A DNA stretch of 64,000 nt from a virus. Below the pieces are notes generated by a model that was not told where the DNA came from, did not search any database, and saw only the letters and a program-made list of their open reading frames with translations. Made by a program: the position numbers and the translations under genes. Each line of letters begins with the position of its first letter. The stretch's first letter is position 1. The DNA lies in the IMG/VR virus record IMGVR_UViG_3300032217_000845, positions 61,777-125,776 of that record; one strand, written 5' to 3'. Below are positions 1 to 46,512 of this stretch, piece after piece.

Positions 1-1
1 T

Positions 2-31: not shown

Positions 32-242
32 ACACGACACGAGAAAGGTCGCTGACTTCGGTTGGCGACTTTTTTTGTATCTGCCGATTACGGAGTTGTA
101 TTCGTTTTTTCCTCACCCCTGCCGAACACGACTTCCCTGTTATCTATTTGTTATAAAACTTTCTACACTTCGGGAATAAATGAACTTGACTTTTAGTTAT
201 ACTCTATGTAATAATGTAGTTATGGACAACGAAAGGGAAACA

Positions 243-770
243 ATGAACAACTACGAGAAGTCATACAGCAACGAGCCGTTTCTAAATGGTGCGTTAGACA
301 TACCTATTTGGAGTGAAATACTGCCGAACTTTTGGCTAGGTGGAACTGCCGATAACGATTGTGTTGGCGATAAGCACTTTCAGTTTGATAGGCAGGACAT
401 CTCTATCAAGCCTAGAAACTTTGATAGCGTTTATACTTTCTACGCTTACGCTAACCCTGTTGATTGGCTAGTTAGAGAGTTTAGGTTTGGCTACTTTGAT
501 AGTGGCGAAACTGACTTTGACTTAGACGAGTTTAGGCGTATTGCTCTAATGGCTCACGCTGATTGGAAGCGTGGCGAGAGAGTGCTAATGCGTTGCCAAG
601 CAGGTCTAAACAGGTCAAGCCTATTCTTTGCCTTAGTGCTTATGATTGACGGCTACACGGCACAAGAAGCGATTGACTTGATACGAGAGAAGCGACACGA
701 TAAGTGTCTATTCAATCCTCACTTCGTAGCGTGGTTGCTCAAACAAGACTTAGAGTTTTGGCGAGCATAA
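243..770 (+). CDS. Dual-specificity/tyrosine protein phosphatase-family protein
   Basis: CX5R P-loop (RCQAGLNRS) and the AQEAIDLIREKR...NPHF C-terminal pattern. Start placed after GAAAGGGAAACA. Confidence 0.85.
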   Translation: MNNYEKSYSNEPFLNGALDIPIWSEILPNFWLGGTADNDCVGDKHFQFDRQDISIKPRNFDSVYTFYAYANPVDWLVREFRFGYFDSGETDFDLDEFRRIALMAHADWKRGERVLMRCQAGLNRSSLFFALVLMIDGYTAQEAIDLIREKRHDKCLFNPHFVAWLLKQDLEFWRA

Positions 771-791
771 ACTCACGCTAAGAAAACCTAA

Positions 792-820
792 CCCCCGTGA
801 AAACTCACGGGGGATTTTCT
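792..820 (+). terminator. Intrinsic terminator (representative; nearly every cassette ends in one)
   Basis: CCCCCGTGA-AAAC-TCACGGGGG followed by ATTTTCT. Confidence 0.85.
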
Positions 821-962
821 TAGTGCGAAGTTGCGAAGGTGTATTCGTTTTTTCCTTACTCTACAAACACGGTGGAAGTATTACTTGCGTAAATCCATAA
901 GGTATGGTAAGATAGTTAGGTAGTCAGAAAGTCTGGCACAATAGAAATCCTGAAAGGGAACA

Positions 963-1286
963 ATGCTAAAAATGGAAATAAATGGGACAGAAGTAGTTAG
1001 TCCTATGGAAATCGCAAGTCGCTTCGGAGTTAGTTTGCCTGCTGTTTATGTCTGGGCAAGGCGTTCGGATTTTCCGACACCACTACTAACGACAGGTGGC
1101 TCACAACGACCACGCCACATTTACTCGGCTACCGAGATTGAGGCTTGGGTCGCTGAACACCTTGACGCTAAGGGTGGCAGGGGCAAGGCTCATCTAATCG
1201 GGCGTAGAGTTCTAGGGCTGGCAACATCTAACCCTGAAATCTACAAGCAGATTGAGCAGTTGCTAGAAAGCACCGACACCGAATAA
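963..1286 (+). CDS. AlpA/excisionase-like HTH DNA-binding protein
   Basis: EIASRFGVSLPAVYVWARRSDFPTP...YSATEIEAW pattern; RBS GAAAGGG. Confidence 0.7.
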   Translation: MLKMEINGTEVVSPMEIASRFGVSLPAVYVWARRSDFPTPLLTTGGSQRPRHIYSATEIEAWVAEHLDAKGGRGKAHLIGRRVLGLATSNPEIYKQIEQLLESTDTE

Positions 1287-1411
1287 GGCTCTGAAAGAAA
1301 CACGCTTACCCGAAAGGGTAGGCGTTTTCTTTTTTTGCTAATGCGAAGTTAGCCGAGTGTATTCGTTTTTTCCTTACACGCTGTCTAGCACGACACGCTA
1401 ATAGTATGAAC

Positions 1412-1440
1412 TTGCTTTTGTCGGTAGTATTTGGTATAAT
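1412..1440 (+). promoter_or_regulatory. Sigma70/SigA-type early promoter (representative)
   Basis: TTGCTT-17 bp-TATAAT. Equivalent promoters precede nearly every cassette (e.g. TTGACT at 3421, 7026, 14084). Confidence 0.85.
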
Positions 1441-1481
1441 AGTTATGTAGTCAGAAAGACTGATTACAGAAAGGGAAACAA

Positions 1482-1796
1482 ATGGAAATCGCTTTACTAG
1501 GTTTCTTAGGTGTTGTATCGCTTATGACTATCGGTGCTTTCTTGGTCGTAGTCTTGTGTGCGTTTATCATCTACAAGATAGACCCGACTTATGACGAGTT
1601 TGGTTTCTGGGGAAACTTCCGTATGGAACTCTCCACTATCCTTGCTGGCAAGTTTGGCTACGAAGTATCACGACAAGAATACAAACAGGCTTACGACTTA
1701 GGTGTCAAAATGAGCGACAGAACTCTACAAGGTAGCAAGAACAGACACCCTGCCAACAATGATGGTAAGTTGCCTTACGAACTCTACAAATACTAA
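1482..1796 (+). CDS. Hypothetical membrane protein
   Basis: N-terminal hydrophobic helix; RBS GAAAGGGAAACAA. Confidence 0.75.
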   Translation: MEIALLGFLGVVSLMTIGAFLVVVLCAFIIYKIDPTYDEFGFWGNFRMELSTILAGKFGYEVSRQEYKQAYDLGVKMSDRTLQGSKNRHPANNDGKLPYELYKY

Positions 1797-2012
1797 GTAG
1801 AACTCACCGAGAGATTACCCCGTAGAGATACGGGGTTTTCTTTTACCCTGTGGGCTGGGAGTTGTATTCGTTTTTTCTATACCACTAATACGAAAGATAA
1901 CAACTTGATAACAACACGATACAAAGATAGTAAATGGGCTTGTATTGTCATTAGATAGGAGTATAATCATAGGTATAGGAAAGTTTCCAAAGGGGAAACT
2001 GAAAGGGACAAA

Positions 2013-2384
2013 ATGACACTAGTAGCAGATACCAAGATTGGCACAGCAGTAGAAACCAAGATTGGCACAGCCGAGTTGAGTGCTGGTAGAGAACGCAAGA
2101 ACTTCTACAAAGACGGAACTAGGGTTGCTCACATAGACAGGATTTACGCACCGAGCAGAGTGTTTATTGACTTGGGCGAGAGTGTCTGGGAACACCTGAA
2201 CAACAGACACAATAGGGATTGGCAGACCCTAAAACCTATCGTGGCTGGATTGCTCTGGGCTAATGGGATTGCCTTTGAGAAACTATCGTGGAACAAGAAC
2301 GCTGGTTGTAAGATGTGTGCTTGCTCTGGTGGGTTCGTAATCACAGGACACAAGGGACAAGACTTCTGGCTCACGATTAGATAA
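2013..2384 (+). CDS. Hypothetical protein (GCxxCxCS motif)
   Basis: Promoter, RBS and terminator context. Confidence 0.8.
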   Translation: MTLVADTKIGTAVETKIGTAELSAGRERKNFYKDGTRVAHIDRIYAPSRVFIDLGESVWEHLNNRHNRDWQTLKPIVAGLLWANGIAFEKLSWNKNAGCKMCACSGGFVITGHKGQDFWLTIR

Positions 2385-2571
2385 GCCAAACACGAAAGCC
2401 CCTGCCGAGAAATCGGTGGGGGTTTTCTCTTGCTATCGCTAATGCGAAGTGTATTCGTTTTTTCCAGATGGCACGGGGCGTGGAGTTTCCGTTATCTGTT
2501 TGTTATAAAGTTTTGGGAAGATTTGTATCACTATTTAGGTTTCTATTATTGTGAAGGAAAGGAGAGATACT

Positions 2572-2712
2572 ATGGAAGACAAACTAAATCCTAAGTTTGG
2601 ACTAAACACCGAGAACCCTGATGTCAAGGGTTTCTTAGCGTGGCTATTCGACCCAGAAGTCGATAAGGCTATTGAGCAGTTCATACAGGACACTAGCAAC
2701 GACACCGAGTAG
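2572..2712 (+). CDS. 46-aa hypothetical protein (MEDKLNPKFG...)
   Basis: RBS GAAAGGAG, own cassette; below the ORF-track cutoff. Confidence 0.7.
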   Translation: MEDKLNPKFGLNTENPDVKGFLAWLFDPEVDKAIEQFIQDTSNDTE

Positions 2713-2958
2713 GTGTAGTCCGTAGCGATAGGCACAGATAATCTCTGTGCCTATTTTGCTATCTTGATACGAAGTTAGGGAAAAAACGAATACATACCCT
2801 AACCCTCTTTATAACGAAATGATAACAACACGATAATACTTGCTAAATGGATTTGACTTTTCCTAGTGGTATAGATTAGGATTACTAATGTAATCGGAAA
2901 TCAAAGTTGGAAAGTCCAATAGAGAGATTACTTAGACCTCACGAAAGGGGTTGGTAGT

Positions 2959-3312
2959 ATGGCTAAGACAGCCATTACTCCGAAGGTAGTAGCAACTGCT
3001 ACTACTTCCACCACCGAAGGCACTCGCAAGGTGTCTAAGGTTCTAGTTGCTAAGGTTGCCGAAATGGCTCACCTTCGCACCGAGATAGCACGCTTGGAAA
3101 AGTTGGCTAACTCACTTCGCAAGGAAGTTCTTGCCGAAGTCGGTTCTGACCCTGTTGTTCTTATTCACAACAACATCAAGGTTGCTAAGGTGTCTGTGGT
3201 AATCACGGAACGCCCTGACCTTGACGCCCTTCGTTCAGCGTTCCCTGACGCTTGGGACGCTGTGAAATACGACAGCCCTGCTGTAAAGATTTCGGTTATC
3301 CACGAAGTCTAA
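2959..3312 (+). CDS. Hypothetical protein, coiled coil plus 'DxDALxxxF' domain; paralog of 15034..15363
   Basis: RBS GAAAGGGG; similarity to the 15034 ORF seen by eye. Confidence 0.75.
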   Translation: MAKTAITPKVVATATTSTTEGTRKVSKVLVAKVAEMAHLRTEIARLEKLANSLRKEVLAEVGSDPVVLIHNNIKVAKVSVVITERPDLDALRSAFPDAWDAVKYDSPAVKISVIHEV

Positions 3313-3455
3313 TCAGTAGTCCCGAAGTCCCCTAGCCGAAAGGCTGGGGGATTTTCGCTATCGGGTTTTGGCAGGGTTGTATTCGTTTTTTCCACACGAC
3401 ACACGGGGGGCAGATTGGATTTGACTTTGTCTGTGCTATGGTGTAGTATGAAGTT

Positions 3456-3872
3456 ATGAATACACAAATACAGCAAGACGAACTAGAACTCCCGACAGGG
3501 CGTATCTACTTTGACGACATCATCAAGACCGATTTTGGTCTATTCCAAAACCTAGATGCTTTGTTGCTCTGGGCTAGTGAAAACCCTAGTGAAGTATCTG
3601 GCTACGAAAGTAGAACTTTCCTGCGTTCATACCGAAACAATAATGGTAATCTCTCTGTGGTCTATGTCTGTAAAGACATTGACGAATGCGATTGCTCTTG
3701 GCAGTTTGCTACACACTTACACGAAATCGCTGTAAGACACATCAAGGAACAGGGTGGAACAGACTTCCCTGCTGAACCTGACTTTGATACAACTCCACGC
3801 AAGCAAGTTGATTGCGAATACCTAGTTGAGATTGAGTATCGCTATGTGGAAGTTGGCGTAGTAGTCAAGTAA
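3456..3872 (+). CDS. Hypothetical protein (leaderless)
   Basis: ATG is 6 nt after the -10 box TAGTAT (3444-3449). Confidence 0.75.
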   Translation: MNTQIQQDELELPTGRIYFDDIIKTDFGLFQNLDALLLWASENPSEVSGYESRTFLRSYRNNNGNLSVVYVCKDIDECDCSWQFATHLHEIAVRHIKEQGGTDFPAEPDFDTTPRKQVDCEYLVEIEYRYVEVGVVVK

Positions 3873-4040
3873 TCTGCGAGAGAGTGGGCAGGGGAAACCC
3901 TGCTCATTTTTTTTGTTAGTCCAATGTGTATTCGTTTTTTCCTAGCACGACACGCTAACACGGGGGCTACTTGCTTTTGTCGGTGCTAGGGTGTAAGATA
4001 GTGTTATCGGAAACTCCGATAGGAAATGAAAGGGAAACAA

Positions 4041-4247
4041 ATGAAGTATGCGTTTCGCAGATTACTTGCTGGTATCGTAATCGTGCCACTAGTCGCTATC
4101 GCCTATCTATTCGGCTACGCTATGCTGGTTGGTCTGGGTGCTGAACCTACTGCTAGTGCTAGTGAAGTCTGGTCGCTAGGGTTGCTGTTCGGTCTAATCG
4201 CTACGCTGGTATTCGCTGGCTCGGCTCTGGTAAAGGCAGGTAAGTAA
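4041..4247 (+). CDS. Small 2-TM membrane protein
   Basis: Two hydrophobic segments; RBS GAAAGGGAAACAA. Confidence 0.75.
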   Translation: MKYAFRRLLAGIVIVPLVAIAYLFGYAMLVGLGAEPTASASEVWSLGLLFGLIATLVFAGSALVKAGK

Positions 4248-4405
4248 TGAAGTATCTACTCGCTGGGCTAGGGGCTTACTCCATTGGGGTTGGCTCTTGG
4301 TTCTACAACGCTAACAACACGCTAAACTCTCTGTTTATCGGCTGGGGGCTGGGCTTGCTCTTGCTAGTTGGCTCTATGGTTCTATTCATTGGGGGCGACA
4401 AATGA
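4247..4405 (+). CDS. 52-aa membrane microprotein (MKYLLAGLGAY...)
   Basis: TAATG overlap with the previous ORF; hydrophobic. Confidence 0.65.
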   Translation: MKYLLAGLGAYSIGVGSWFYNANNTLNSLFIGWGLGLLLLVGSMVLFIGGDK

Positions 4406-4521
4406 CTAGGGAACTCTGGTTCGCTGTTGTCCTAGCGTTGCTCGTTGGCTCATCTATCTTGCTAGGCTGGTGCTTACACGCTTGGCATTACAGACCACGC
4501 TATCGCAGAAATCGCAGATAG
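4402..4521 (+). CDS. 39-aa single-TM microprotein with Arg-rich tail
   Basis: ATGA overlap; MTRELWFAVVLALLVGSSILLGWCLHAWHYRPRYRRNRR; terminator follows. Confidence 0.6.
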   Translation: MTRELWFAVVLALLVGSSILLGWCLHAWHYRPRYRRNRR

Positions 4522-4729
4522 GTTTTAGGAACTCCCCCGATTATGTCGGGGGTTTTCTTTTGCCTGTTTCGGTTCGGGGTGTATTCGTTTTTTCTTGACA
4601 TACGGCAAGGATTATAACGAAATGATAACGCTACACTAATACGAAGTTGCTAAGTTGCTTTTGTCGGTGGTAGGTGGTAAGATTGTATTAGTTAGAAAGT
4701 CTAACTACTTATAGAAAGGGGCGACCAAA

Positions 4730-5089
4730 ATGGTTGCTGGCGTTATCATCACAACTGAAATGAACACCACAGAACTTCCTGACACTTCATACGAAGCGAT
4801 TAGCAAGGCTGTCGGTGGCTACATACAGATAGTTCCACTACAAAACGACTTCGCTGGATACTCAATGTATCTACACGAAGAGGGTAAGTTGATTGGTCTT
4901 CCAATGAACGACATCGCAACTGCCGTTTGGGAAAACTCATACGGACACACAGACATCATCTTAGGAAATGTCGTAATCGTCAATGCGAACACAGACGACG
5001 ACGGAAACGAACTTCCTATTAGCGAAGACGACGCTGAAAGCCTTATGGCGAAACTAAGACTAGTCTTTGTGAAATACGCTACGAACTAG
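4730..5089 (+). CDS. DUF3846-like protein
   Basis: VGGYIQIV...MYLHEEGKLIGLPMN...DIILGNVVI pattern. Confidence 0.75.
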   Translation: MVAGVIITTEMNTTELPDTSYEAISKAVGGYIQIVPLQNDFAGYSMYLHEEGKLIGLPMNDIATAVWENSYGHTDIILGNVVIVNANTDDDGNELPISEDDAESLMAKLRLVFVKYATN

Positions 5090-5271
5090 CCAAGCAAGTA
5101 GTTAGGCGATTAGGGAAACCTAGTCGCCTTTCTGCGTTTTTGCGTGGGGGCAGGGTGTATTCGTTTTTTCCATTACGACACGCTAAGGGCTATCGTGATT
5201 TGTATTTGTCGGGGTAGTATGATACAATCGTATTGTTAGTTGGAAAGGCTGACTAACTGAAAGGGAAACAA

Positions 5272-5670
5272 ATGGCAGTAATAGATTGGGACGAAGTAGA
5301 TAGTGGTCTAGTAGGTGCTAAGGCTATTGCCTTTGATACTTGCCACAAAATCTATGTCCTTATGGACGATGAGCAGGTTGCCGAAATGCGTGGCTACGGA
5401 TACGGCGATGAACCAGATAGTTTCTACACTTGCGATGAAATGTCGCATAGCGAAATGCTGGAAAAGCTAAAAGAGTGGTTTGAGAAGTCTTGCCCCCTGA
5501 AGTTCATACAAGCAGTAGAAACTAATCACACCGACCCTAACGCTGGTTTTACCACGCTGATTGAGCAGGGTGCTACCGAATACGAACTTTGCTACATCTG
5601 TGGAGCCGAAGGTTGCGAAGGTGAGTGCGAAGACGAAGACGACTACGAAGACGAAGAAGACGAAGAGTGA
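5272..5670 (+). CDS. Hypothetical protein with Cys-rich and acidic C-terminus
   Basis: RBS GAAAGGGAAACAA; cassette context. Confidence 0.8.
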   Translation: MAVIDWDEVDSGLVGAKAIAFDTCHKIYVLMDDEQVAEMRGYGYGDEPDSFYTCDEMSHSEMLEKLKEWFEKSCPLKFIQAVETNHTDPNAGFTTLIEQGATEYELCYICGAEGCEGECEDEDDYEDEEDEE

Positions 5671-5681
5671 GCCTGATAGCA

Positions 5682-5852
5682 ATGCGTAAGTGCGATTGCT
5701 GTAATGGCGAGAGTGTCTTCACTTGCGAGAGTTGTGGAAACGGATTGGCAAGCGAACGAAAACCTTTCGTTGATAGTTCTGGGATTGAGTTTGACCCGAA
5801 CACCGAACACGCTATTTGGGTTTGCGTGGATTGTGCCGAACGCCTAGCCTAG
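5682..5852 (+). CDS. Small Cys-rich (zinc-finger-like) protein
   Basis: CxxC pairs (CDCC, CESC, CVDC); alternative GTG start at 5667. Confidence 0.6.
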   Translation: MRKCDCCNGESVFTCESCGNGLASERKPFVDSSGIEFDPNTEHAIWVCVDCAERLA

Positions 5853-6034
5853 TCCTAAGAAAGTCCCCTTGCGAAAGCAGGGGGATTATTCTTTGCCCGA
5901 TTGGTTGCGAGATGTATTCGTTTTTTCCTGTGGATACGGCAGACACGACACGCCTTAGCCTTGACTTGACTTTATGTTAGTAGTTTGGTATAATGAGAGT
6001 ATCAAGTAAGTTGCTTGATAGAAATGGGAAACAG

Positions 6035-6238
6035 ATGTCAGTAAAGTATCCAGAAGTCAAAACTGTAAAGTTAGTTGGCGAAGACGGAAATGCTTTCGCT
6101 ATCTTGGGAAGAGTTGTGAAGGCTATGCGTGTAGCAGGTCTATCTAAGGAAGTCCAAGACGCTTACTACAAGGAAGCCACTAGTGGCGACTACGACCACT
6201 TGCTACAAACAACGCTTCGCTGGGTAAAGACCAAGTAA
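6035..6238 (+). CDS. Phage hypothetical protein (LVGEDGNAFAILG...SGDYDHLL)
   Basis: Motif I recognise from small phage proteins; cassette context. Confidence 0.75.
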   Translation: MSVKYPEVKTVKLVGEDGNAFAILGRVVKAMRVAGLSKEVQDAYYKEATSGDYDHLLQTTLRWVKTK

Positions 6239-6459
6239 AGAACCCGTCGGGTATTCGGTCAATACTCAAAAGCCCCCTTACTCTCACACACGGAGTAGGG
6301 GGGTTTCTTCTTTTGCTGTGGTTGTGGTTGCTGCTGAAAAAACGAATACACTTCGCACTAGCACGGGGGCGACACGCTTCGTATGTGTTTGCGTATGTCG
6401 GGGGTGTAGAGTATAATAGTATTAGTTAGAAATACTAACTAGAAACGAAAGGGAAAGAA

Positions 6460-6708
6460 ATGGGTCTAAGCAAAGACTTCTATTCGGGGTTTGCCTTTGA
6501 GGAACTCGGTCGTATGGTCGGGGGACACAAGGACTACTTCGTTAGTGAGCAGACTATCGCTATGGTCTGGGCAGAGTGCCACAAGAACGAACGCCTTATC
6601 ACGCTGGCTGGTATGTATCTGGTTGGGTCAAGCGAAAGGGCTGAACGAAACTTACAGAAACTACAAGACGAACTCCGTCTTGTGTTCATTGAGCGAAAGG
6701 TAATCTAA
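6460..6708 (+). CDS. Hypothetical protein
   Basis: RBS GAAAGGG. Confidence 0.75.
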   Translation: MGLSKDFYSGFAFEELGRMVGGHKDYFVSEQTIAMVWAECHKNERLITLAGMYLVGSSERAERNLQKLQDELRLVFIERKVI

Positions 6709-6929
6709 TGGAAGTCGCAGTAATCGTAGTGCTAATCCTTATGAGTGGTCTGGGTGCGATAATCGGTGCTTGTCTTACGACAATGAACTTACGCAAGGCT
6801 TTCATCTTTACTATCCACAATGCTACGGACTATGTAGTAGATGTTCGTATTGACTACTCCACTAAGGAAGTTGTGGTTGTAGATGTAGCCAAGCAACCTG
6901 CTAAACCAAGAGCCAAGCGAACCAAGTAA
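6708..6929 (+). CDS. Small membrane protein
   Basis: TAATG coupling; N-terminal TM helix and basic tail. Confidence 0.7.
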   Translation: MEVAVIVVLILMSGLGAIIGACLTTMNLRKAFIFTIHNATDYVVDVRIDYSTKEVVVVDVAKQPAKPRAKRTK

Positions 6930-7060
6930 GTTCGCATACGGGAAGTCAGTAATGGCTTCCCGTTTCTCTTAGTGTCAAGTTGTATTCGTTTTTTCCTGAC
7001 CTGTGGGACACGGGTCGCTCTTGACTTGACTTTACTAATGCTATGTGATACACTTATCTT

Positions 7061-7249
7061 ATGAATAAGAAAGCGAAGCCAATGAACAAGGCAAACCAAG
7101 CAAGAGCCAAAGTAGAGCGTTCTGCTCTGGCAGTAATCTTGCGTGAGCGTGCCAAGAGCAACGCTTCTGGTGTTCATACCAACAAGGCAACAAAGCGAGC
7201 CAACACCCGTTCGGCTCGTAAATCACAAGCACTTAGAGAGTGGGCATAA
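7061..7249 (+). CDS. Small very basic protein (leaderless)
   Basis: TTGACT 7026 and TACACT 7049, then ATG 6 nt later; K/R/A-rich. Confidence 0.7.
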   Translation: MNKKAKPMNKANQARAKVERSALAVILRERAKSNASGVHTNKATKRANTRSARKSQALREWA

Positions 7250-7375
7250 ATGGAACTAACTGACCTAGAAGCAAAAGCAGTAAAGGCTATTTACAGCGAC
7301 TATCACGATGGGGCTATGGACGCTGACGAAGCACTACACGCCTTAGAACAACTCATCAACAACGACAACGACTAA
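7250..7375 (+). CDS. 41-aa acidic protein (MELTDLEAK...)
   Basis: Directly abuts the previous stop codon; terminator follows. Confidence 0.6.
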   Translation: MELTDLEAKAVKAIYSDYHDGAMDADEALHALEQLINNDND

Positions 7376-7535
7376 GAACAGAGAGAGAGAGCCTATGCTT
7401 CGGCATAGGTTTTCTTTCTGCGTGGGTAGCAGTGGAAAAAACGAATACATACGGAGAGCAACACGCCTATCCTATGGACTTGACTTTTATCCTATGCTTT
7501 GATACAATAGGGGTATAGAAAGAAAGGGGTAGCAA

Positions 7536-7898: not shown

Positions 7899-8075
7899 CA
7901 CGACCTAACAAAACGCCACTTAGTCAAACGACTAGGTGGCTTTTGTCTTATCTGGAAGTTGTGGCGAAGTGGCAGTGTATTCGTTTTTTCCTAACAACAT
8001 CGCATTAGTGAGATGTGCTTGACTTTGTCGGGGGTCTGTGTTAGAATAGTATTATCCAAATGAAAGGGGATACAA

Positions 8076-9570: not shown

Positions 9571-9774
9571 GTTAGTCAAAGTAGTCCCCCTGCGTATGTG
9601 GGGGGATTATTTTTTTGTCTGTGGGTGTGCGTGGTTGTTTGGAAGTGTATTCGTTTTTTCCGTAGGTATAGCAACACGGCGAAGGGGGGGGGCGACTTGA
9701 CTTTGTCGTATCTATGTGTTATGATGTAAATACAAGGGAAACGAAATAGAAGTAGTTTCGTAAAGGGGTTCTAA

Positions 9775-10107
9775 ATGAGTTGTAAAGATTGGTCTATCGC
9801 AGTAGTAGCCGAAAAGCCTATGTGCGACATCTGCCCTAAGTTTGGGTTTATCACTAAGGTTGCCGAGTATGACGCTAGAACGCAGTTCGGGGGAAACCCG
9901 TGGGCGTTTATGTGCGAGAGTTGCTACGGCTACTTTGGGTTTGACCGACTAGGTCTAGGCTATGGTCAGCGACTAATAACAGAGAGCGAACACACTCACG
10001 AGTGGATAGAAGTAAATCTCGCCGAGTATGAAACTTACGAGTTTAGCCAGAGCGAGCCAGATACTACGCTATGTTCGCAATGTGGGCTACATAAGCCAGC
10101 AGAATAA
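9775..10107 (+). CDS. Hypothetical Cys/His-rich protein
   Basis: CDIC...YDART...WAFMCESC...LGLGYGQ; cassette context. Confidence 0.75.
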   Translation: MSCKDWSIAVVAEKPMCDICPKFGFITKVAEYDARTQFGGNPWAFMCESCYGYFGFDRLGLGYGQRLITESEHTHEWIEVNLAEYETYEFSQSEPDTTLCSQCGLHKPAE

Positions 10108-10296
10108 GGTCTAGGGGTTAGGTCAAGTGCCTAGCCCCTAATCTTATGTTCGGGGTCTGTGGAAAAAACGAATACACCTCGCTTGGCACGGCTACTAGCT
10201 TTTGCTGTGGTGTGCTGTCTTACTTGACTTTCTTATGTTTCTATGTTAGGCTCTCGGTAGAGCCTGAAAATCTCGGGTTCTAGAAAGTGGGTTCCA

Positions 10297-10755
10297 ATGT
10301 CCAAGCCAGCCAGCGATAAGCAGGTAGCGTTTCTTACCACGCTCGCAAGCGAGCGTATCTACGAGGGTGCGACCGAGTTCGCTACCCTTACCTCTGCCGA
10401 GGCTTCCGACCTAATCGGTCAGTTGCTAAACGCACCACGCAAGTCCAGCACCTCTACTTCATACGAGCGTATTACGGAAGAGGGCGTGTATCAAAACGCC
10501 GAGGGCGACATCTTCCGTGTCCAGCGTTCCCGTGAGAGTGGCAACCTCTACGCCAAGCGTCTAGACATCTTTGAGGGTGGCTTTGTCTATGAGGCAGGGC
10601 TACTTCGCAAAATCACACCTAGCGACCGACTAGGCGTTGAGCAAGCCAAGGCTCTTGGAGTTCAGTATGGCTTCTGTGTAGTCTGTGGTATCTTGCTTAC
10701 CGACCCTAAGAGCGTTGAGCAGGGTATCGGTCCTGTGTGTATCAAGCGTGTCTAA
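10297..10755 (+). CDS. DUF6011-like zinc-ribbon protein
   Basis: C-terminal CVVCGILLTDPKSVEQGIGPVC. Confidence 0.75.
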   Translation: MSKPASDKQVAFLTTLASERIYEGATEFATLTSAEASDLIGQLLNAPRKSSTSTSYERITEEGVYQNAEGDIFRVQRSRESGNLYAKRLDIFEGGFVYEAGLLRKITPSDRLGVEQAKALGVQYGFCVVCGILLTDPKSVEQGIGPVCIKRV

Positions 10756-10994
10756 CGCCTAGCGTTAGTCAAGACCCCCTTGCCAAACGGCAGGGGGGTT
10801 TTCCTTTGTCTAATGCGAAGTTGTGGCACGGGGGGAGATGTATTCGTTTTTTCTGTGGTGCTGGTTTTGGGCTGTGGTCGTTATCAAGTTGTTATGTATT
10901 TATTATGCGTTTATGTAGAAAATGTCTGTGGAGTAGGCTATAATGGTATTAGTTGGAAGTTAGCGAATGTCTAACTCAACTGAAAGGGACGCAA

Positions 10995-11210
10995 ATGGCT
11001 AAGCCAAGTGTGAAGTTAGTTCAGGAATGGGAAGTTGCTTACGAGAGTGGGCTAGTGAAAGTGTCTTACGGCACGGCTGTCTTTGAGCAGGACTATTGGA
11101 AAGTGGAAAACAGGATTATCAACAAGGTTCAGTATTTCTACGGAGAAACTGCGTGGTCGGACGCTAGGCGTAGAGCAAGCGACATTGACTTTGGTGCGTG
11201 GAGTTTCTAA
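10995..11210 (+). CDS. Hypothetical protein
   Basis: RBS GAAAGGG; start corrected from the track. Confidence 0.7.
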   Translation: MAKPSVKLVQEWEVAYESGLVKVSYGTAVFEQDYWKVENRIINKVQYFYGETAWSDARRRASDIDFGAWSF

Positions 11211-11487
11211 CTAAATAATCAAACAAACAAACTAGGCAGGGTTCTCCTCTCTGCCTAGTTTTGTTTTTGCCTGTGGTAATGCGAAGTTGCGTGCGTGCGT
11301 ATGTGTAAGTGCGTGCCTGTGGTTGCGTTCGTGTATTCGTTTTTTCCTAACTACTACGGAACGAAACACGGGTGCTAGTTCGTTATCTGTTTGTTATAGA
11401 AAGTTAGTGTATGAACTTGACTTTATCTTAGTTAGGGTATAGACTACATTTGTAGTCGCAAGGGCTACCAGATGAAAGAGGGAACAA

Positions 11488-11811
11488 ATGGCAACTATCA
11501 AGATTACTTGGGTATCAAAGGGATACTTGGGCGAGTTCAGGGACGCAACTATCCTTGACCTAATCAACAAGGGCTACGATGTTCGTGGCAACGCAACAGC
11601 AGAGTTGGACTTTGACTTTCCAGAGGGCGACACTCTAATCTGTAATGCTATCTACGCAAACACTAACTCCTACACAGGAAAGTTTTGGGACGCATTACAG
11701 GCAGTTATTCCAGCAGACAGACCACACACGGCTCTAAGTATGGGCGACAAGGTTTCTATTGACGGACGAGAGTATGTTTGCTCGGAGTTCGGTTGGAAAC
11801 TTGTAGCCTAG
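11488..11811 (+). CDS. Hypothetical protein (HTALSMGD...YVCSEFGW C-terminus)
   Basis: Cassette context. Confidence 0.75.
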   Translation: MATIKITWVSKGYLGEFRDATILDLINKGYDVRGNATAELDFDFPEGDTLICNAIYANTNSYTGKFWDALQAVIPADRPHTALSMGDKVSIDGREYVCSEFGWKLVA

Positions 11812-12012
11812 CCAAACAGCCAAACAGCCAAACAGCCAGCCGAAAGGTTGGTTGTTTGGTTTTTGCGTTAGTGCGAAGTTGTGGCTGCCAGGAAAAAACG
11901 AATACAGACCCTAGCCCGACACGCCCGACACGACAAGCAACTTGACTTTATTGCTGTGGTATGTTAGACTACAAATGTAGTCAGAAAGATTACGGAACTG
12001 AAAGGGAAACAA

Positions 12013-12231
12013 ATGAACCTACTACAAGCAGAAATCCTAGTTATCGGACTTGAGTTTGAGATTGCTATGGACGGAAAGATGTCTGTTAGTGCCGAACCAG
12101 CGATGAAGTCTTTGGGTCGCCTGATGAACATTGACGCTTATGCTCACTTTGGTAAAGGCGTAAAGGGTCGCCAAAAGGCTCTTGAGTGGCTCAAGGAAGC
12201 GATTGCGGAAGCAGAGAAGCAAGAAGCCTAA
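12013..12231 (+). CDS. Hypothetical protein
   Basis: RBS GAAAGGGAAACAA. Confidence 0.75.
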   Translation: MNLLQAEILVIGLEFEIAMDGKMSVSAEPAMKSLGRLMNIDAYAHFGKGVKGRQKALEWLKEAIAEAEKQEA

Positions 12232-12297
12232 TACGAAGTTAGAAGCCCCCTACGGAAGCGTGGGGGGTTTTCTCGTGCCTGTGGAGTTATGAACACC

Positions 12298-12318
12298 TGT
12301 GGATAACCCTGTGGATAA
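12298..12318 (-). promoter_or_regulatory. Two tandem perfect DnaA boxes
   Basis: TGTGGATAA (reverse complement of TTATCCACA) at 12298-12306 and 12310-12318. Confidence 0.7.
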
Positions 12319-12411
12319 CTTTGGTGGGGTTTGTATTCGTTTTTTCCTAATCACGCTTGCGAGTTGCCTCTACAATAGGAACACGCTTACATTTAGAAAG
12401 AGAGGCTAACT

Positions 12412-12642
12412 ATGGTTTGGATACAAACAAACTTTACCGCCGAAGCAATGAACACGGGCAAGCCAGCGACAGAAACCCCTGTTGTAGCGAAGCCTGAACC
12501 TGTCGTCAAGAAGAAGGCTAAGGCTGAACCTGTGGCAGAAGTAGTAGCAGAAGTAGAAACACCTGCGGTTGAGGTTGAGGAAGTAGTCCTCGCTGAACCA
12601 GAGGTCGCCGAGCCAGAGGTCGCTGAACCCGAAGCAGAGTAA
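12412..12642 (+). CDS. Low-complexity acidic protein (AEPEV repeats)
   Basis: RBS GAAAGAGAGG; terminator at about 12661-12690. Confidence 0.7.
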   Translation: MVWIQTNFTAEAMNTGKPATETPVVAKPEPVVKKKAKAEPVAEVVAEVETPAVEVEEVVLAEPEVAEPEVAEPEAE

Positions 12643-12739
12643 TCACGGCTTATAGTAAAGTCCCCCTTGACTAGAAATAGTTAGGGGGATTTTCTATTTG
12701 GTGTTGCTTTTGTCTGTGGTATGTGATAGACTATAAATA

Positions 12740-13010
12740 ACAAGGAAGCGACGGCTAACTTGGAGTATGGCTGAACAACCTCAATCGTCAGATGGGGGGG
12801 TAAGGCAATGTCGGATACTAGCGTATCGTCTTAGCGGACAAACGGCAGGTGTGCTGAAAAGCGGGCTTAGAACCGAACTGACTTGGCATTGGTGGTAAAA
12901 CGCAATCCACCTACTCAACTACAAACATAAACGGGCTGGTGTGGCGTTTATGTGGCTAACATTAGTGGCTACCAGACAGAACCCTTAGCGGAAACGCTAG
13001 GGGTATTTCT
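12740..13010 (+). ncRNA. Candidate structured non-coding RNA cassette
   Basis: Promoter TTGCTT(12704)-17-TAGACT(12727), terminator 12981-13004 and several internal hairpins. The only ORF noticed is 43 aa (12767..12898) and lacks the array's RBS. Confidence 0.55.
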
Positions 13011-13153
13011 GTTTTTGCGATGTCTGCGGTTGCGGTATGTATTCGTTTTTTCCTAGCCCCTCACGAGAGGCGACACACGCACGGCAGGTGGAGTTGCTTT
13101 GTTTAGGTGTTAGTGGTATGATTACTTTGTAATCAAGCAACGAAAGGGAAAAA

Positions 13154-13522
13154 TTGGAAAACAGAATTACTGAAAAGCAATTAGGGCTTCTAAGAAAACT
13201 AGCCAAAGAAAAATACGCACCAAGTTTGGTTGCGGAGTTGGAGAAGTTTCTAGCAACTGATTTGAGCAAGCAAGGGGCTAGCAACCTTATTGAGAAGTTC
13301 CTAGAAGCACCGAAGAAAAGCGAAAGTCCAGAATACAAAGCCGAACTTGCCGAGAGAGCCAAGCAAGCGAGAGAACGAGCAGAACTAGCCGAGCAAGCCA
13401 AGCAAGCAGAAACCGAGAACTGCCGAGAGTGTAAGCAGGGACACCCTGTCGCACATTTCAATTGTAGTTTCCCGAACAGGATTGGACACACTAGGCACTG
13501 CACCGCTGACTTGTGTTTCTAG
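13154..13522 (+). CDS. Hypothetical protein; N-terminal domain shared with the 10297 ORF
   Basis: TTG start after GAAAGGG; ITEKQL...LSKQGASNLIEKFLEAP. Confidence 0.7.
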   Translation: MENRITEKQLGLLRKLAKEKYAPSLVAELEKFLATDLSKQGASNLIEKFLEAPKKSESPEYKAELAERAKQARERAELAEQAKQAETENCRECKQGHPVAHFNCSFPNRIGHTRHCTADLCF

Positions 13523-13725
13523 TTAGCAACTAGGGAAGTCCCTTAGCCAGAAATGGTTAGGGGGCTTTCTTGCTTTTGGGCTGTGGCTGTGGGTTAGGTG
13601 TATTCGTTTTTTCCTAGCCTCAACTGCGACACGACACGCATACGATAATGACTTGACTTTCTGTTATCTGTGTGTTAGAATACTTATGTATTCAAAGGGA
13701 ATACAAAAACGAAAGGGAAACACAA

Positions 13726-13932
13726 ATGTCAGTAAAAACTCTAGTAGTAGAAATCCACTACCAAGACGGCAGACCAACTCTAAAGCCAATCTACGAGTGC
13801 CACAGCGTAGAAAAGTTTGAGGAGTTTGTGGCTTGGCACAAGGAAAACCTACCAATGAGAACCACCACAACTCTCAAAGCCTACGACTACAACTCAACCA
13901 CCCCTGAACTAACAGAGATGATTATCAAGTAA
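13726..13932 (+). CDS. Hypothetical protein
   Basis: RBS GAAAGGGAAACAC; start corrected from the track. Confidence 0.7.
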   Translation: MSVKTLVVEIHYQDGRPTLKPIYECHSVEKFEEFVAWHKENLPMRTTTTLKAYDYNSTTPELTEMIIK

Positions 13933-14118
13933 GTTAGGCAACCGAGAACCCCCTACGAAAGTGGGGGGTTTTCTTTTGTCTGCGGGTGCGTGTGTTAGTG
14001 CGAAGTTGTAGAGTGTGAAATCGGTAGCGTAAGAAAAAACGAATACACTACGGACACGACAACACGGGGGCGAGTGTGGCTACTTGACTTTTGCTGTGGT
14101 AAGTGGTAGAATAGTATT

Positions 14119-14550
14119 ATGGCAAAACTTCTAGTGCTACAAGGCTTAGTGGCTTCGGGCAAATCAACTTACGCTAAGGGACTTCTATCTATTCACCCTG
14201 CGGGCTACGCTATGCGTATCAACAATGACGACTTATCTACGGCTATGTTTGGCTCTGCGTTTGGCGGTGGTGCTAACACGGCTCAACTGCTAGGCAAACT
14301 TCGGGCGGACTTAGTTCGTCTAGCGTTTCGCAATGGTTTTGAGTTAGTCATTATGGACAACACAAACCTAAACCCGAAAGCCGTCAAGTCATTAGAAAGA
14401 TTGGCGGAGAGTTGCGGTGTTGAGTTTGAGTTGGACAACTCGTTTCTAAGTGTGCCTATTGCGGAGTGCTTGCGTAGAAATGCTCTGCGTGAAAACCCTG
14501 TTCCCGAAAAGGTGGTTTTAGAAATGGCTCGCCTTATTGGAGATGATTGA
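14119..14550 (+). CDS. P-loop kinase, T4 polynucleotide-kinase N-domain/AAA_33-like (leaderless)
   Basis: Walker A GLVASGKST, RINNDDL, VIMDNTNL and ECLRRNALR...VPEKVV motifs. Confidence 0.8.
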   Translation: MAKLLVLQGLVASGKSTYAKGLLSIHPAGYAMRINNDDLSTAMFGSAFGGGANTAQLLGKLRADLVRLAFRNGFELVIMDNTNLNPKAVKSLERLAESCGVEFELDNSFLSVPIAECLRRNALRENPVPEKVVLEMARLIGDD

Positions 14551-14614
14551 CTTTTGCGTTTCTATGTGGTAGAATACTTTTGTAGTCAAAGGGATTGACT
14601 ACTGAAAGGGAAAG

Positions 14615-14815
14615 ATGAACAAGTTCGTTATCACAAAGTCAATAGCAGTAGTCAAGGCAGTTGCTCGTGGTGTTGCGGTAGCAACCGAAAGCAAGGCGAC
14701 CACAAACCGAAAGGCGAAAGTTGCTAACGAGGTAGCCAAGTGCGTTGCCGACTTAGGACTAAACCCTGTTGCGAGTGTGAAGCGTGTTGTGCGTATGGTG
14801 GAAACCCTGCGGTAA
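14615..14815 (+). CDS. Small basic hypothetical protein
   Basis: RBS GAAAGGG; its promoter -35 overlaps the previous TGA. Confidence 0.65.
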   Translation: MNKFVITKSIAVVKAVARGVAVATESKATTNRKAKVANEVAKCVADLGLNPVASVKRVVRMVETLR

Positions 14816-15033
14816 GACTTACAAAGCAAACCCGTCTAGCGAAAGTTAGGCGGGTTTTCTTTTGCTTGCGGTGTTTGCTTCGTGCGTTGTTGTATTCGTT
14901 TTTTCCTAAGTGCTTGCCTAGTGCGACACGCTAGAAAGAAAGTTTGTAAATGAACTTGACTTTTCTGCGGTAGCCTGATAGACTACAAAGGTAGTCAAGG
15001 CAAAGGGCTAAGACACAGATGAAAGGGAAACAA

Positions 15034-15363
15034 ATGACCACAGCAACACAGACCACCGCAAAGGTAATCTCTAAGGTTGAGTTGAGTGCTAAGGGCGTAA
15101 AGGCTCTACAAGCGTTCAACAAAGCAAAGGAAGCGGAAGCAAAGGTAAAGGCAACTAAGTCAAAGGCGGAAGCAATTTTGCGGACAGAGTTGGGCGAAAC
15201 CCCGAACACACAAGCAACTATTCAGGGCGTAGTTGTTGCCAGCGTAGTTGGAAGCAAGAATACTTCGTTTGACCGAGATGCTCTAAAAGAGTTTCTAGGT
15301 GAAGAGAAATACAACGAGTTCCTGCGGACAACCGAATACACTTACATCAAAACCGCTAACTAA
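15034..15363 (+). CDS. Hypothetical protein, paralog of 2959..3312
   Basis: RBS GAAAGGGAAACAA; FDRDALKEFL motif. Confidence 0.75.
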   Translation: MTTATQTTAKVISKVELSAKGVKALQAFNKAKEAEAKVKATKSKAEAILRTELGETPNTQATIQGVVVASVVGSKNTSFDRDALKEFLGEEKYNEFLRTTEYTYIKTAN

Positions 15364-15552
15364 GTTAGCAAGCGAGCAACCGCTAACCGAAAGGTTGGCG
15401 GTTGTTTGCGTTTTTGTTTTGCGGTGTTGCGTTTCGTGCGTGTGTTCGTGTGTCTGCGGTAAGCGTGGAAAAAACGAATACACTTTCGCCAGCCAGCCAC
15501 GCCACGAAAGCGAGTGTTTGCTTTTGTCTGCGGTTAGTGTTAGAGTGTAAGT

Positions 15553-15690
15553 ATGGACATTAGATTTTATGCGTGGAAAGCAGTCGCTAAGGTTGCTAGG
15601 TATTTCAGCAGAGTTGGGTATAACCTATTTAGGCGAGCCGAACACTTCTCTTATCTTTCAGGTAAGAAAGCAAGCAAGTATAAGGCTTGA
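15553..15690 (+). CDS. 45-aa basic protein (leaderless; MDIRFYAWK...)
   Basis: TTGCTT 15518 and TAGAGT 15541, ATG 6 nt later. Confidence 0.6.
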   Translation: MDIRFYAWKAVAKVARYFSRVGYNLFRRAEHFSYLSGKKASKYKA

Positions 15691-15742
15691 CTTTACTGCG
15701 GTAAAGTGATAGAATAGTATTACCAGACAACACTAAGAAAGG

Positions 15743-15991
15743 GTGAAAATGTCTAGCAACTATCCAGACGGCTCTATGATGGGTTCAGGTATTTACGCAA
15801 GCGAGGTTTCGTATGAAGAGTTTGAGTGCGAAAATGAAGAGTGCGGTAAGACCAATGAAGCAGGTGAAACTTCTACTGACGATTGGGGAAACTACTCTAT
15901 CGAGTGTGAGTTCTGCGGTGCTAACTATTTAGAGAGTTCTCTAAGTGATGACCGAGATGACTACTTAGCAGACTACGACCCGAATAACTAA
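15743..15991 (+). CDS. Small acidic zinc-ribbon-like protein
   Basis: CENEEC and CEFC; RBS GAAAGGG (ATG 15749 is an alternative start). Confidence 0.7.
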   Translation: MKMSSNYPDGSMMGSGIYASEVSYEEFECENEECGKTNEAGETSTDDWGNYSIECEFCGANYLESSLSDDRDDYLADYDPNN

Positions 15992-16050
15992 ATAGACTTA
16001 TGCGGTAAGGCGGGGAAAGCCGAACGCAACTTTACATAACTAAATAAACT

Positions 16051-16165
16051 TCTGCCTAACTTGTTTCCCCCTTTCCGTTAGGCAGAGAAAGAGAAACGGG
16101 ACTGCCCCCTAACTAACCCGTTTCTCCTAAACCGCTAGGCGTTTATTCGTCTAGCGGTTTTGTCT
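16051..16165 (+). ncRNA. Candidate small RNA: two hairpins with C/U-rich loops plus terminator
   Basis: Stem 16051-60/16077-86 with loop TTGTTTCCCCCTTTCC; stem 16091-100/16117-26 with loop ACTGCCCCCTAACTAA; terminator about 16129-16160. Confidence 0.5.
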
Positions 16166-16466
16166 TTGTCTGCGGTGTTTGTTTTTGTGTGTTTGTTGTA
16201 TTCGTTTTTTCTTGTGCTTGTGAAACCGCTTCCACTACGCAACTTTGTATTAGTAGGTTGCTTCGCTTCCTTCGCCTTCGCTTCGTGTTGTTGCTTCGCT
16301 TCGCTTTCGTTCGCTTCGCTTCTGCGGTGCTTCGCTTAGTGAGTTGTTTCGTTATCATTTTGTTATAAAGTCGTTATCGTCTTTGTAATCTTATTACTTG
16401 ACTTTTATTCTGCGGTAGAGTAGAATAAGAGTATGTAGAAAATCTACATAGAAAGAAAAGGGAAAG

Positions 16467-16685
16467 ATGAACAACAAGGCAAGAGATACCCGAGCAAGTT
16501 GGGGACTAGTTTCATTTATGTTGGCATTGTTTATTGGTGCTGACGCTTTGGGAAACATAGACACTACGGACTATTACCACGACAGAGCATTAGGTTTCTT
16601 TGTTCTGTTCTTAGGTATTACTTTCGTGCTTTACACTTGGAACGCTATTCAGTATGCGGTATTCCTAAAACGCAATAGACGCTAA
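16467..16685 (+). CDS. Small 2-TM membrane protein (last cassette)
   Basis: Promoter, RBS AAAAGGG and terminator. Confidence 0.7.
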   Translation: MNNKARDTRASWGLVSFMLALFIGADALGNIDTTDYYHDRALGFFVLFLGITFVLYTWNAIQYAVFLKRNRR

Positions 16686-16926
16686 CAACTTCACAACTTA
16701 GCAACCGCCTAGCCGAGAAAGGTTAGGCGGTTCTTTGTTTTTGTTTGTGCTTCTTTCTTTTGCTTCGCTTCGTGCTTCGTGAGAGGTTGAGAAAAAACGA
16801 ATACGCTTCGCAACTTTGTATTAGTGTTTGTCTGCGGTGCTTCGCTTCTAGGTTCTTTCTTTGCTTTGCTTCGCTTCGTAGTTCTTTCGTGCTTCTTTGT
16901 CTTAGTTGCTTCTTTGTCTGCGGTGC

Positions 16927-46496: not shown

Positions 46497-46512
46497 TAGC
46501 TAATAACTCAGT

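Follow-up and report, generated by a model that had tools for sequence, protein, structure and literature searches.

An invariant word in helical phase with the early promoters of an uncultured, most likely freshwater actinophage-like virus

Several described systems combine small genes with recurring intergenic elements. In T4-like phages, the sections of the reports drawn on here describe PeSLs, conserved regulatory elements between which homologous exchange takes place (PMC2839356; PMC4122927): dense arrays of small, mostly unknown early genes each carry a strong sigma-70-like promoter and a stem-loop terminator, gains, losses, and replacements between relatives end in the conserved intergenic elements, and exchange between neighboring elements forms mini-circles. 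The stoperators of Cluster A mycobacteriophages, as characterized in the cited portion of the source, are asymmetric 13–14-mers found in >20 copies in short intergenic spaces of actinobacterial phages, with variants between lineages; they occur genome-wide, are oriented with transcription, fail when reversed, and are bound by a monomeric repressor with two DNA-binding domains (PMC9283540). For class I activators such as CRP, the relevant part of the source reports activation peaks with sites centered near −61.5, −71.5, −82.5, and −92.5, on the polymerase's face (PMC4132738), i.e., upstream of the core promoter (~−71.5, −82, −92), on the same helical face and in one-turn steps. Integrons hold one-way arrays of small unrelated genes with a recurring boundary site, attC, whose imperfect inverted repeat folds into a hairpin, and their promoterless cassettes are read from a common promoter. 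In phage phi29, protein p4 is said to bind one helical turn apart upstream of promoters and to contact the alpha C-terminal domain of the polymerase, and it reportedly activates a weak late promoter while repressing a strong early one by holding the polymerase. Here, we analyzed a 64,000-nt window of viral DNA, positions 61,777–125,776 of the IMG/VR record IMGVR_UViG_3300032217_000845 (G000; 125,776 bases, 93% complete), in which an invariant 14-bp word, GTATTCGTTTTTTC, stands between terminator and promoter in an array of small early-gene cassettes. Phage early-promoter regulons and PeSL-like cassettes are known in kind; what is new here is the helical phasing of the word to the −35 hexamer.

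The window contains 31 exact copies of the word, 23 on the + strand and 8 on the − strand, between 98 and 16804, compared to 0.00 copies expected from 100 shuffles. Copies are spaced 329–859 bp apart (mean 556), and the rest of the window beyond 16804 holds no exact copy. An earlier note made from the letters of the window had counted 31 copies (23 forward and 8 reversed) spaced ~330–860 bp apart with a mean of ~555, and none in the late region, all of which the exact scan reproduced. Its array of about 30 cassettes at 97–16805 is right for the window but not for the true size of the array, since the window edge cuts it and the remaining 10 copies sit in the record to the left. The whole record carries 41 exact copies (31 on +, 10 on −), all within 49,890–78,580, i.e., inside one early island and with no comparable frequency elsewhere; the observation is thus confirmed and larger than first described. 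A scan of the whole record allowing ≤2 mismatches returned 42 hits, namely the 41 exact copies and a single two-mismatch hit at 85,822, with no one-mismatch copy anywhere in the record. The conserved unit is 15–16 bp long, as a T precedes the 14-mer in 40 of the 41 copies and a C follows it in 31. In the array region, every plausible gene is encoded on the + strand. The features are as follows, in window coordinates unless the record is named; distances are the bases between the word and the first base of the predicted −35 hexamer under our own promoter scoring.

Record 49,850-80,200 (window part 1..18450), + strand: early island, all genes on +, ~40 promoter-gene-terminator cassettes
98..111, + strand: exact word copy; −35 at 186, 74 nt
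841..854, + strand: exact word copy; −35 at 885, 30 nt
1359..1372, + strand: exact word copy; −35 at 1412, 39 nt
1864..1877, + strand: exact word copy; −35 at 1940, 62 nt
2451..2464, + strand: exact word copy; weak promoter match at 2513, 48 nt
2780..2793, − strand: exact word copy, reversed; −35 at 2853, 59 nt
3379..3392, + strand: exact word copy; −35 at 3421, 28 nt
3928..3941, + strand: exact word copy; −35 at 3971, 29 nt
4581..4594, + strand: exact word copy, crossover point in L261; −35 at 4655, 60 nt
5157..5170, + strand: exact word copy, crossover point in L261; −35 at 5200, 29 nt
5914..5927, + strand: exact word copy; −35 at 5966, 38 nt
6336..6349, − strand: exact word copy, reversed; −35 at 6389, 39 nt
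6982..6995, + strand: exact word copy; −35 at 7026, 30 nt
7435..7448, − strand: exact word copy, reversed; −35 at 7480, 31 nt
7977..7990, + strand: exact word copy; −35 at 8019, 28 nt
8314..8327, + strand: exact word copy; −35 at 8371, 43 nt
8780..8793, + strand: exact word copy, homology block edge in L260 and L261; −35 at 8833, 39 nt
9274..9287, + strand: exact word copy, homology block edge in L260 and L261; −35 at 9343, 55 nt
9647..9660, + strand: exact word copy; −35 at 9697, 36 nt
10162..10175, − strand: exact word copy, reversed; −35 at 10224, 48 nt
10840..10853, + strand: exact word copy, extra-cassette insertion point (one in L263, two in L259)
11333..11346, + strand: exact word copy; −35 at 11417, 70 nt
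11892..11905, − strand: exact word copy, reversed; −35 at 11942, 36 nt
12333..12346, + strand: exact word copy; −35 at 12364, 17 nt
13039..13052, + strand: exact word copy; −35 at 13094, 41 nt
13600..13613, + strand: exact word copy; −35 at 13653, 39 nt
14033..14046, − strand: exact word copy, reversed; −35 at 14084, 37 nt
14892..14905, + strand: exact word copy; −35 at 14956, 50 nt
15468..15481, − strand: exact word copy, reversed; −35 at 15518, 36 nt
16198..16211, + strand: exact word copy; only a weak promoter match, 79 nt
16791..16804, − strand: last exact word copy, reversed; nearest good promoter 122 nt off

Each copy sits in the same context. The order is a GC-rich hairpin with a T-run, a G/T-rich spacer of 19–72 nt, the word, a C/A-rich spacer, a promoter, a leader, a ribosome-binding site of the GAAAGGGAAAC type, and a small open reading frame (ORF). 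A terminator-like site (scan, ≥8 pairs) ends 19–72 nt upstream of 22 of the 31 window copies, and RNAfold predicts an upstream hairpin with a T-run at the other 9. A promoter-like match by our own scoring lies downstream of all 31, three of them weak (score 13.0–13.4). The repeating unit of terminator, word, promoter, ribosome-binding site, and small ORF that had been proposed from the letters alone therefore holds at the window copies. Within window positions 1–18500, scans returned 37 promoter-like sites vs 22.9 expected and 46 terminator-like sites vs 16.3 expected. The early promoters are sigma-70-like and near TTGACT, 17 nt, TAgAAT, often with a TG. In contrast to integron cassettes, each cassette thus has its own promoter and terminator, and the 16-bp unit is asymmetric rather than a folding inverted repeat.

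The distance between word and promoter is not continuous. We applied a Rayleigh statistic to the distance from the word to the first base of the predicted −35 hexamer, which falls into discrete classes of 27–31 (mode 29), 36–41, 47–51, ~60, and ~70 nt. For 140 forward sites pooled over nine sequences, which come from related phages whose spacers are not alignable, R was 0.52 at periods of 10.3–10.7 bp (p ~2e-17) and only 0.14–0.23 at periods of 6–8 bp. Phasing was seen separately in G000 (p 0.001), in its relative G001 (R 0.63), and in G003, G005, L186, and L195. It was found again in G000 with a stricter promoter pattern (25/41 sites, p 0.003), and an independent promoter scan gave the same distances at 14 window sites. 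By comparison, the control spacing between terminator T-run and word was almost flat (R = 0.15). Among 21 pairs of cassettes common to G000 and G001, spacing differed by 0 or ±1 nt in 6, by 8–12 nt in 8, and by 28–31 nt in 3, indicating that evolution alters this spacing mostly by whole turns (17/21 pairs). With the −35 hexamer set at −35, the word is centered at −71.5, −81.5, −91.5, −102.5, and −112.5, i.e., at the spacing of class I upstream sites, given predicted hexamers and the standard −35-to-start distance. The word is not placed like an UP element, whose A/T-rich DNA adjoins the −35 hexamer on its upstream side (about −40 to −60), since it lies at least 17 nt, and usually at least 27 nt, upstream of that hexamer. 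Discrete phased distances make the word a part of the promoter rather than a neutral boundary mark.

Orientation adds to this picture. The 16-bp word with its conserved flanks has neither dyad symmetry nor a hairpin, and the reversed copies in G000 are as invariant as the forward ones (10/10 exact). The 19 reversed sites share the helical phase of the forward ones (6.5 vs 7.7 bp; R 0.44, p 0.02), whereas a phase of ~1.7 (a 6-bp shift) would be expected if the T-run alone were the reference. Reversal is also kept between relatives: across 21 motif sites in L258, L259, L263, and L261 with both flanks matched to one G000 site, none was flagged as differing in orientation. These observations support the word acting as double-stranded DNA through its whole footprint and in either orientation; its action as double-stranded DNA had been suggested as probable from the letters. 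The further claim that orientation is independent of transcription stands insofar as 10 of 41 copies are reversed and fully conserved, but not as an absence of bias: summed over 11 related sequences, 170 of 194 copies (88%) point along transcription, several lineages are 100% forward, and reversed copies are present in 4 of the 11. A third GTATTCG-bearing contig outside those 11 (loci L182 and L285) has two reversed copies. The array starts with two reversed copies 25–35 bp apart in both G000 (49,890 and 49,925) and G001 (5,718 and 5,743), and ends with one reversed copy in both.

Next, we compared the word across relatives. G001 (53.9 kb, 33% complete) carries 43 exact copies and none with one mismatch, even though the genes common to G000 and G001 share only 68–81% DNA identity and, at 40 of the 43 sites, neither 45-nt flank matches any G000 site. 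Over the nine sequences with the G000 version, there are 175 exact and 2 one-mismatch copies. The two one-mismatch copies seen (loci L258 and L285) read GTATTTGTTTTTTC, one step towards the version of G003, and GTATTCGTTTTTTT. Within G000, the best local alignment of any 45-nt flank to the flank of another site scores ≤23, so that the description of the flanks as unrelated is accurate for extended homology; it fails for short words, as CGACACG, CTGTGG, TAATGCGAAGTT, and GTTATC-N5-GTTAT are common to the flanks. Constancy of the word amid such saturated divergence implies that each copy is constrained or constantly renewed.

Large terminase (TerL) relatives comprise 483 IMG/VR stretches, and a survey of the loci around this gene in 80 of the 483 revealed that other lineages carry their own invariant word at the same place, as if in dialects:

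L186: word version GTATTCATTTTTTCAC
L210: word version GTATTCATTTTTTATC
G003: word version GGTATTTATTTTTTCTG
L195: word version GTATTTATTTTTTCT
G005 and L244: word version GTATCCACTTTTTTAC
L179 and L196: more distant T-rich word forms

The common pattern is a conserved GTAT, four variable bases, and then a T-run, with 5–6 T in all versions. G005 carries two versions side by side, in 15 and 3 copies. No such word was found in G007, in G008, or in the metagenome-assembled Actinomycetia phage DSL-LC01, the best relative of the capsid protein (68% identity). The IMG/VR record behind L241 (G009) has another word, TTGCGTGGAAAA, then CCCTTTG, in ~7 copies after terminators within a palindrome-poor island. 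In the early region of DSL-LC01 (record 24.8–43.3 kb, locus L128), 16 copies of an extended −10 promoter word, ATTCTAAAGATGTTATA, occur; a conserved −35 hexamer and a separate word farther upstream are both lacking. The words "promoter" and "intergenic" do not occur in the main text of the DSL-LC01 paper, the part of that publication covered by our search.

We put slightly above even the reading in which a lineage-specific regulator has its upstream site, on one face of the helix, at the word and makes the ~40 early promoters one regulon. The word would then be the upstream-most part of each early promoter and a double-stranded site for a sequence-specific protein, which, once bound, could touch the polymerase, like class I activators on the alpha C-terminal domain, or bend the upstream DNA. 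In this way, ~40 single-gene host-takeover cassettes would become a single regulon, boosted or shut off together. The invariance, position, helical phasing, orientation independence, and lineage-specific versions of the word are observed; protein binding, the encoder of the protein, and the sign of regulation are what we infer. Our guess is that the phage itself encodes the putative word-binding protein, which would co-evolve with its site. Given core promoters that are near consensus to begin with, we lean to timed shut-off or competitive capture of the polymerase over the rescue of weak promoters. By analogy, phi29 p4, as it is reported to act, could be a model for shut-off from ~−71 at consensus-like promoters; its sites are reportedly few and inverted repeats, unlike the word. 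The idea that the element is an operator of the early region, one of three options in the earlier note, thus survives in a sharper form, as a promoter-upstream site at ~−71.5 plus whole turns, but without the binders then suggested for it.

Several points weigh against such a regulator. Near-consensus core promoters should not need an activator, an asymmetric site working both ways is unusual for contact-type activators, and a change of version requires ~40 parallel changes. The word also departs from known class I sites in being asymmetric rather than a dimer palindrome, occurring in both orientations and in lineage-specific versions, and serving near-consensus promoters, ~40 of them in one phage, at positions derived from predicted starts. 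Some good promoters of the island lack an upstream word (14547, 15687, and 17446–17714), and L210 shows no phasing (7 usable sites). As for the phasing itself, the −71.5 figure depends on predicted hexamers and the standard −35-to-start distance, the distance classes could partly reflect spacers built of repeated short words, and the pooled phages are related, if not alignable in their spacers. Finally, no binder emerged from the candidates or from an eight-genome profiling, and an HU/IHF-like gene is absent in five related genomes.

The search for a binder covered the three helix–turn–helix (HTH) proteins put forward in the earlier note, none of which is supported, given their distribution or unchanged helices. 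The candidate at 20786 (20786–21340, 184 aa, two HTHs) keeps its recognition helices unchanged in 17 aligned lineages with different words or none, is also present in the word-less G007 lineage, and finds no more than weak sigma-region-4 matches in solved structures. The array-bearing G003, L195, and L210 lack the candidate at 18582, and the one at 963 has no match in G003 or G005. An XRE-type HTH protein of the island (record 57,436–57,723; PF01381) was likewise set aside, as it has the same recognition helix in lineages with different words and in GC-rich relatives. We also profiled the G000 ORFs against the word-bearing G003, G004, and G005 and against DSL-LC01, G007, G008, and G009 treated as word-less, G009 having a word of its own. 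What remained was a 77-aa acidic protein (record 29,930–30,163), a 1644-aa virion-block protein, and fragments, none with a DNA-binding signature. No RNA polymerase domain was found in the subset of ORFs scanned, i.e., 32 against Pfam and 10 against PHROGs.

Cassettes are gained, lost, and moved between relatives. G000 and G001 do not have the same cassettes in the same order: there are several translocations, many cassettes occur in one of the two only, and global alignments of their cassettes are too diverged for placing breakpoints. We therefore placed joints in metagenome relatives at 94–97% identity (L258, L259, and L263) or 82–87% identity (L260 and L261). In L259, two extra cassettes sit at copy 10840, where left homology ends at the last base of the word and resumes 7 nt before the word; in L263, one extra cassette sits at the same copy, with homology ending at the last base of the word and resuming ~24 nt after it. 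At L261:4857, the flank to the left of copy 4581 runs directly into the one to the right of copy 5157, which leaves L261 one cassette shorter here; the missing gene sits elsewhere in L261. Homology blocks shared with L260 and L261 (8779–9287, 10159–10853, and 10836–13052) end at word edges. Among loose ends in other metagenomes, 6 of the 24 listed (of 127) fall ≤5 nt from the left edge of the word, compared to ~0.4 expected given the share of the stretch that such positions cover. Short-sided joints (20–21 letters) linking one word copy to another were set aside as repeat artefacts of the relatives' contigs.

Breaks also occur away from the word. In L258, a 26-bp repeat within the −35 region of a promoter (14068–14093) flanks an additional cassette, and the stretch from just after a −10 box to a terminator start (14585/14833) holds a different ORF. 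Other block joints lie at terminator starts (7899, 6938, and 14828), and run X4 has a 561-bp deletion of one cassette (13012–13574) with its joint in a terminator tail 26 nt upstream of a word. All matches are collinear, with no inversion. A search with PF00589 found no tyrosine recombinase in the 93%-complete record (control genomes, 14/14), which speaks against an integron. The window is indeed without a recombinase, as had been noted, but a 219-aa serine recombinase with Resolvase and Recombinase domains lies elsewhere in the record (17,865–18,524, − strand). This gene is common to the word-less DSL-LC01 and to G005 and absent from the word-bearing G003, and thus does not track the word. 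The phage also encodes an AAA_24 RecA-like protein, a PD-(D/E)XK nuclease, and SSB. As the longest stretch identical in all intergenic regions, the word is a frequent crossover point in cassette exchange by homologous recombination. Judging from these alignments, the exchange fits a homology-driven, PeSL-like process rather than an integron-like one: the promoter-plus-terminator unit is dense, and joints of L258, L259, L260, L261, and L263 lie within such elements. The second option of the earlier note, a crossover site, is thus right in that gains and losses often break at the word, and wrong in that they break at −35 regions, −10 boxes, and terminators as well and involve no integron-like system. 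PeSLs as described in the cited sections have no separate word (PMC2839356; PMC4122927), whereas here an invariant 14–16-bp word, phased and lineage-specific, stands between terminator and promoter, in an actinophage-like siphovirus unrelated to T4-like phages.

The word array coincides with an unusual stretch of the genome. The 30.35-kb island holds 24 four-bp palindromes other than CTAG and TATA, vs ~36 per kb outside, with sharp edges. Weaker islands occur at the arrays of G001, G003, G005, and G009, and GATC is absent from all 125,776 bases of G000. The left edge of the island adjoins a strand-polar AACCG array (record 46,000–49,800) with 42 copies on + vs 2 on − in 3.8 kb. The scarcity of palindromes suggests that restriction threatens the island earlier than the remaining genome; a palindrome-poor island does not by itself explain the word.

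Alternative explanations have to account for invariance, phasing, and orientation together. It is improbable, in our view, that the word exists for recombination, as a cassette-exchange crossover site (site-specific or short-homology) whose sameness is kept by that use and whose phasing is secondary. In its favor, the extra cassettes of L259 and L263 (95–97% identical relatives) sit exactly between two word copies, the L261:4857 joint lies between copies 4581 and 5157, L260 and L261 blocks and an excess of loose ends stop at word edges, G000 and G001 differ by translocations, and recombination proteins are encoded. However, the other joints fall in a −35 region, after a −10 box, at terminator starts, and in a terminator tail, there are no inversions though a quarter of the copies are reversed, no tyrosine recombinase is encoded, and the serine recombinase does not track the word. 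Moreover, an invariant island in diverged DNA draws alignment ends by itself, selection for exchangeability cannot easily keep 41 of 41 copies exact, and helical phasing is left unexplained. We give similarly little credence to a word that needs no protein, being intrinsically bent or rigid DNA (the T6 run) that helps upstream DNA wrap the polymerase, with uniformity kept by concerted evolution. A run of 5–6 T is kept in all versions, phasing is what a bend needs, function in either orientation comes naturally, and the two versions of G005 (15 and 3 copies) are as expected from spread by conversion. Yet the non-T half (GTATTCG) is equally invariant, reversed copies keep the position of the whole word and not that of the T-run, and conversion tracts would need to span ~16 bp between non-homologous flanks. 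A single 6-bp tract gives only a small bend, which also counts against this explanation.

Two further possibilities draw on other phage biology. A stoperator-like roadblock, in which a repressor at each word stops terminator read-through and insulates the cassettes, seems quite unlikely, although the likeness to Cluster A sites as set out in the cited text is close (PMC9283540): an asymmetric 14-mer, many copies, short intergenic spaces, lineage versions, capsid relatives among actinophages, and 88% of copies along transcription. Reversed stoperators lose function according to the same text (PMC9283540), whereas here a quarter of the copies (10/41) are reversed and fully conserved; in addition, the sites are confined to the early island (49,890–78,580) and not genome-wide, and the phasing of the word is with the promoter that follows it rather than with the terminator that precedes it. 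No cognate stoperator-type repressor was found in G000, and the only two-HTH protein of such a size (20786–21340) keeps its recognition helices where the word differs. Least probable of all are handles for staged entry or protection, with the island entering first and a host or injected protein gripping the word at each cassette. The array coincides with the sharply bounded 30-kb palindrome-purged island (weaker in G001, G003, and G005) and the polar AACCG array (42 vs 2) adjoins its left edge, and the strict conservation of every copy would suit a step that a single defective site is enough to block. However, there is no link between entry and the word itself, such a model has no room for the phasing to the −35 hexamer, and the G000 record is a permuted assembly, the 127-bp terminal repeat of G003 looking like an assembly overlap. 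DNA-entry handles, the third option of the earlier note, thus found no support of their own, the phasing tying the word to promoters.

Returning to the favored reading, in which the word is a regulator's upstream site, a broader version, a private promoter dialect, appears doubtful. A per-lineage factor, injected or made first, would dock on its own 14–16-bp word at −71.5 plus whole turns at all forty early promoters, and would switch the host-takeover arsenal as a unit that co-infecting relatives with another dialect could neither drive nor silence. The word, as a frequent crossover point, would also set the partners for trading early genes, and the palindrome-free island would be a matching adaptation of this first-expressed DNA. 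If so, one short sequence would tie regulation to gene flow. More generally, if a regulator reads the word, ~40 early genes of abundant uncultured freshwater actinophages would be wired to one switch whose word differs between lineages. The word would be a handle for finding the regulator by pull-down, the array a list of immediate-early host-takeover genes, and orthogonal helix-phased pairs of word and factor possible gene-control parts for actinobacteria. The array links promoter architecture with the modular exchange of accessory genes between phages, two subjects usually studied apart, and the sharp-edged palindrome-free island that it overlaps opens the timing of DNA entry and of escape from restriction to direct tests in this group.

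The phage is most likely an uncultured freshwater actinophage-like siphovirus. Its portal, terminase, capsid, and tail proteins match PHROGs families, and after DSL-LC01, the next capsid relatives are Microbacterium, Arthrobacter, Gordonia, and Mycobacterium phages; the window itself had no megablast match among isolated phages. Two WhiB-type genes, one with a Pfam match and one homologous to an annotated gene of DSL-LC01, point to an actinobacterial host. The GC-rich relatives of the island XRE-type regulator are presumably actinobacterial, which would fit such a host. Most public runs containing pieces of the island bear freshwater or lake metagenome labels, and runs X2, X3, X4, and X7 carry long island pieces, two of them labelled freshwater. 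Scans of IMG/VR with the 14-mer gave single chance matches among the matches listed, and scans of one-genome-per-species bacteria and archaea with the 16-mer gave single matches among the matches listed, with no sign of a host-chromosome array among these. In the main texts of a limited paper collection, no paper on the word itself and nothing relevant on intergenic motifs of freshwater actinophages was found.

Other repeats recur around the promoters. An inverted repeat, AACTTCG...CGAAGTT (also as TAATGCGAAGTT), adjoins many early −35 hexamers in the window and in several lineages; this palindromic AACTTC...GAAGTT element may be a candidate classical operator, which would leave the word another role. 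Direct repeats GTTATC-N5-GTTAT, one helical turn apart, are found in many window spacers (e.g., 150–175, 2490–2515, and 11385–11410), in either orientation in some intergenic regions, and in the word-less relatives L287 and L288. Near the right end of the island (17297–17338), these repeats are arranged as a tandem array of 3.8 copies with an 11-bp unit. This end (window 16200–18450) is ORF-poor, with runs of GCTTC pentamers, a 68-bp repeat, an AT skew of −0.35, and four near-consensus tandem promoters (17446, 17503, 17657, and 17714). Two adjoining copies of CTGTGGATAAC, whose core 9-mer we take to resemble a DnaA box, lie at window ~12,285–12,320, just upstream of word copy 12333, and shorter CTGTGG words are common in the spacers after terminators. 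Leaders (e.g., 930–950, 1445–1470, and 4690–4712) form short hairpins with GAAA-type loops directly after the −10 box, followed by a very uniform ribosome-binding site, GAAAGGGAAACAAATG. One cassette contains an Rfam manA RNA (RF01745) at window 12744–12921 (+), scoring 61.4 bits vs a gathering score of 55.2.

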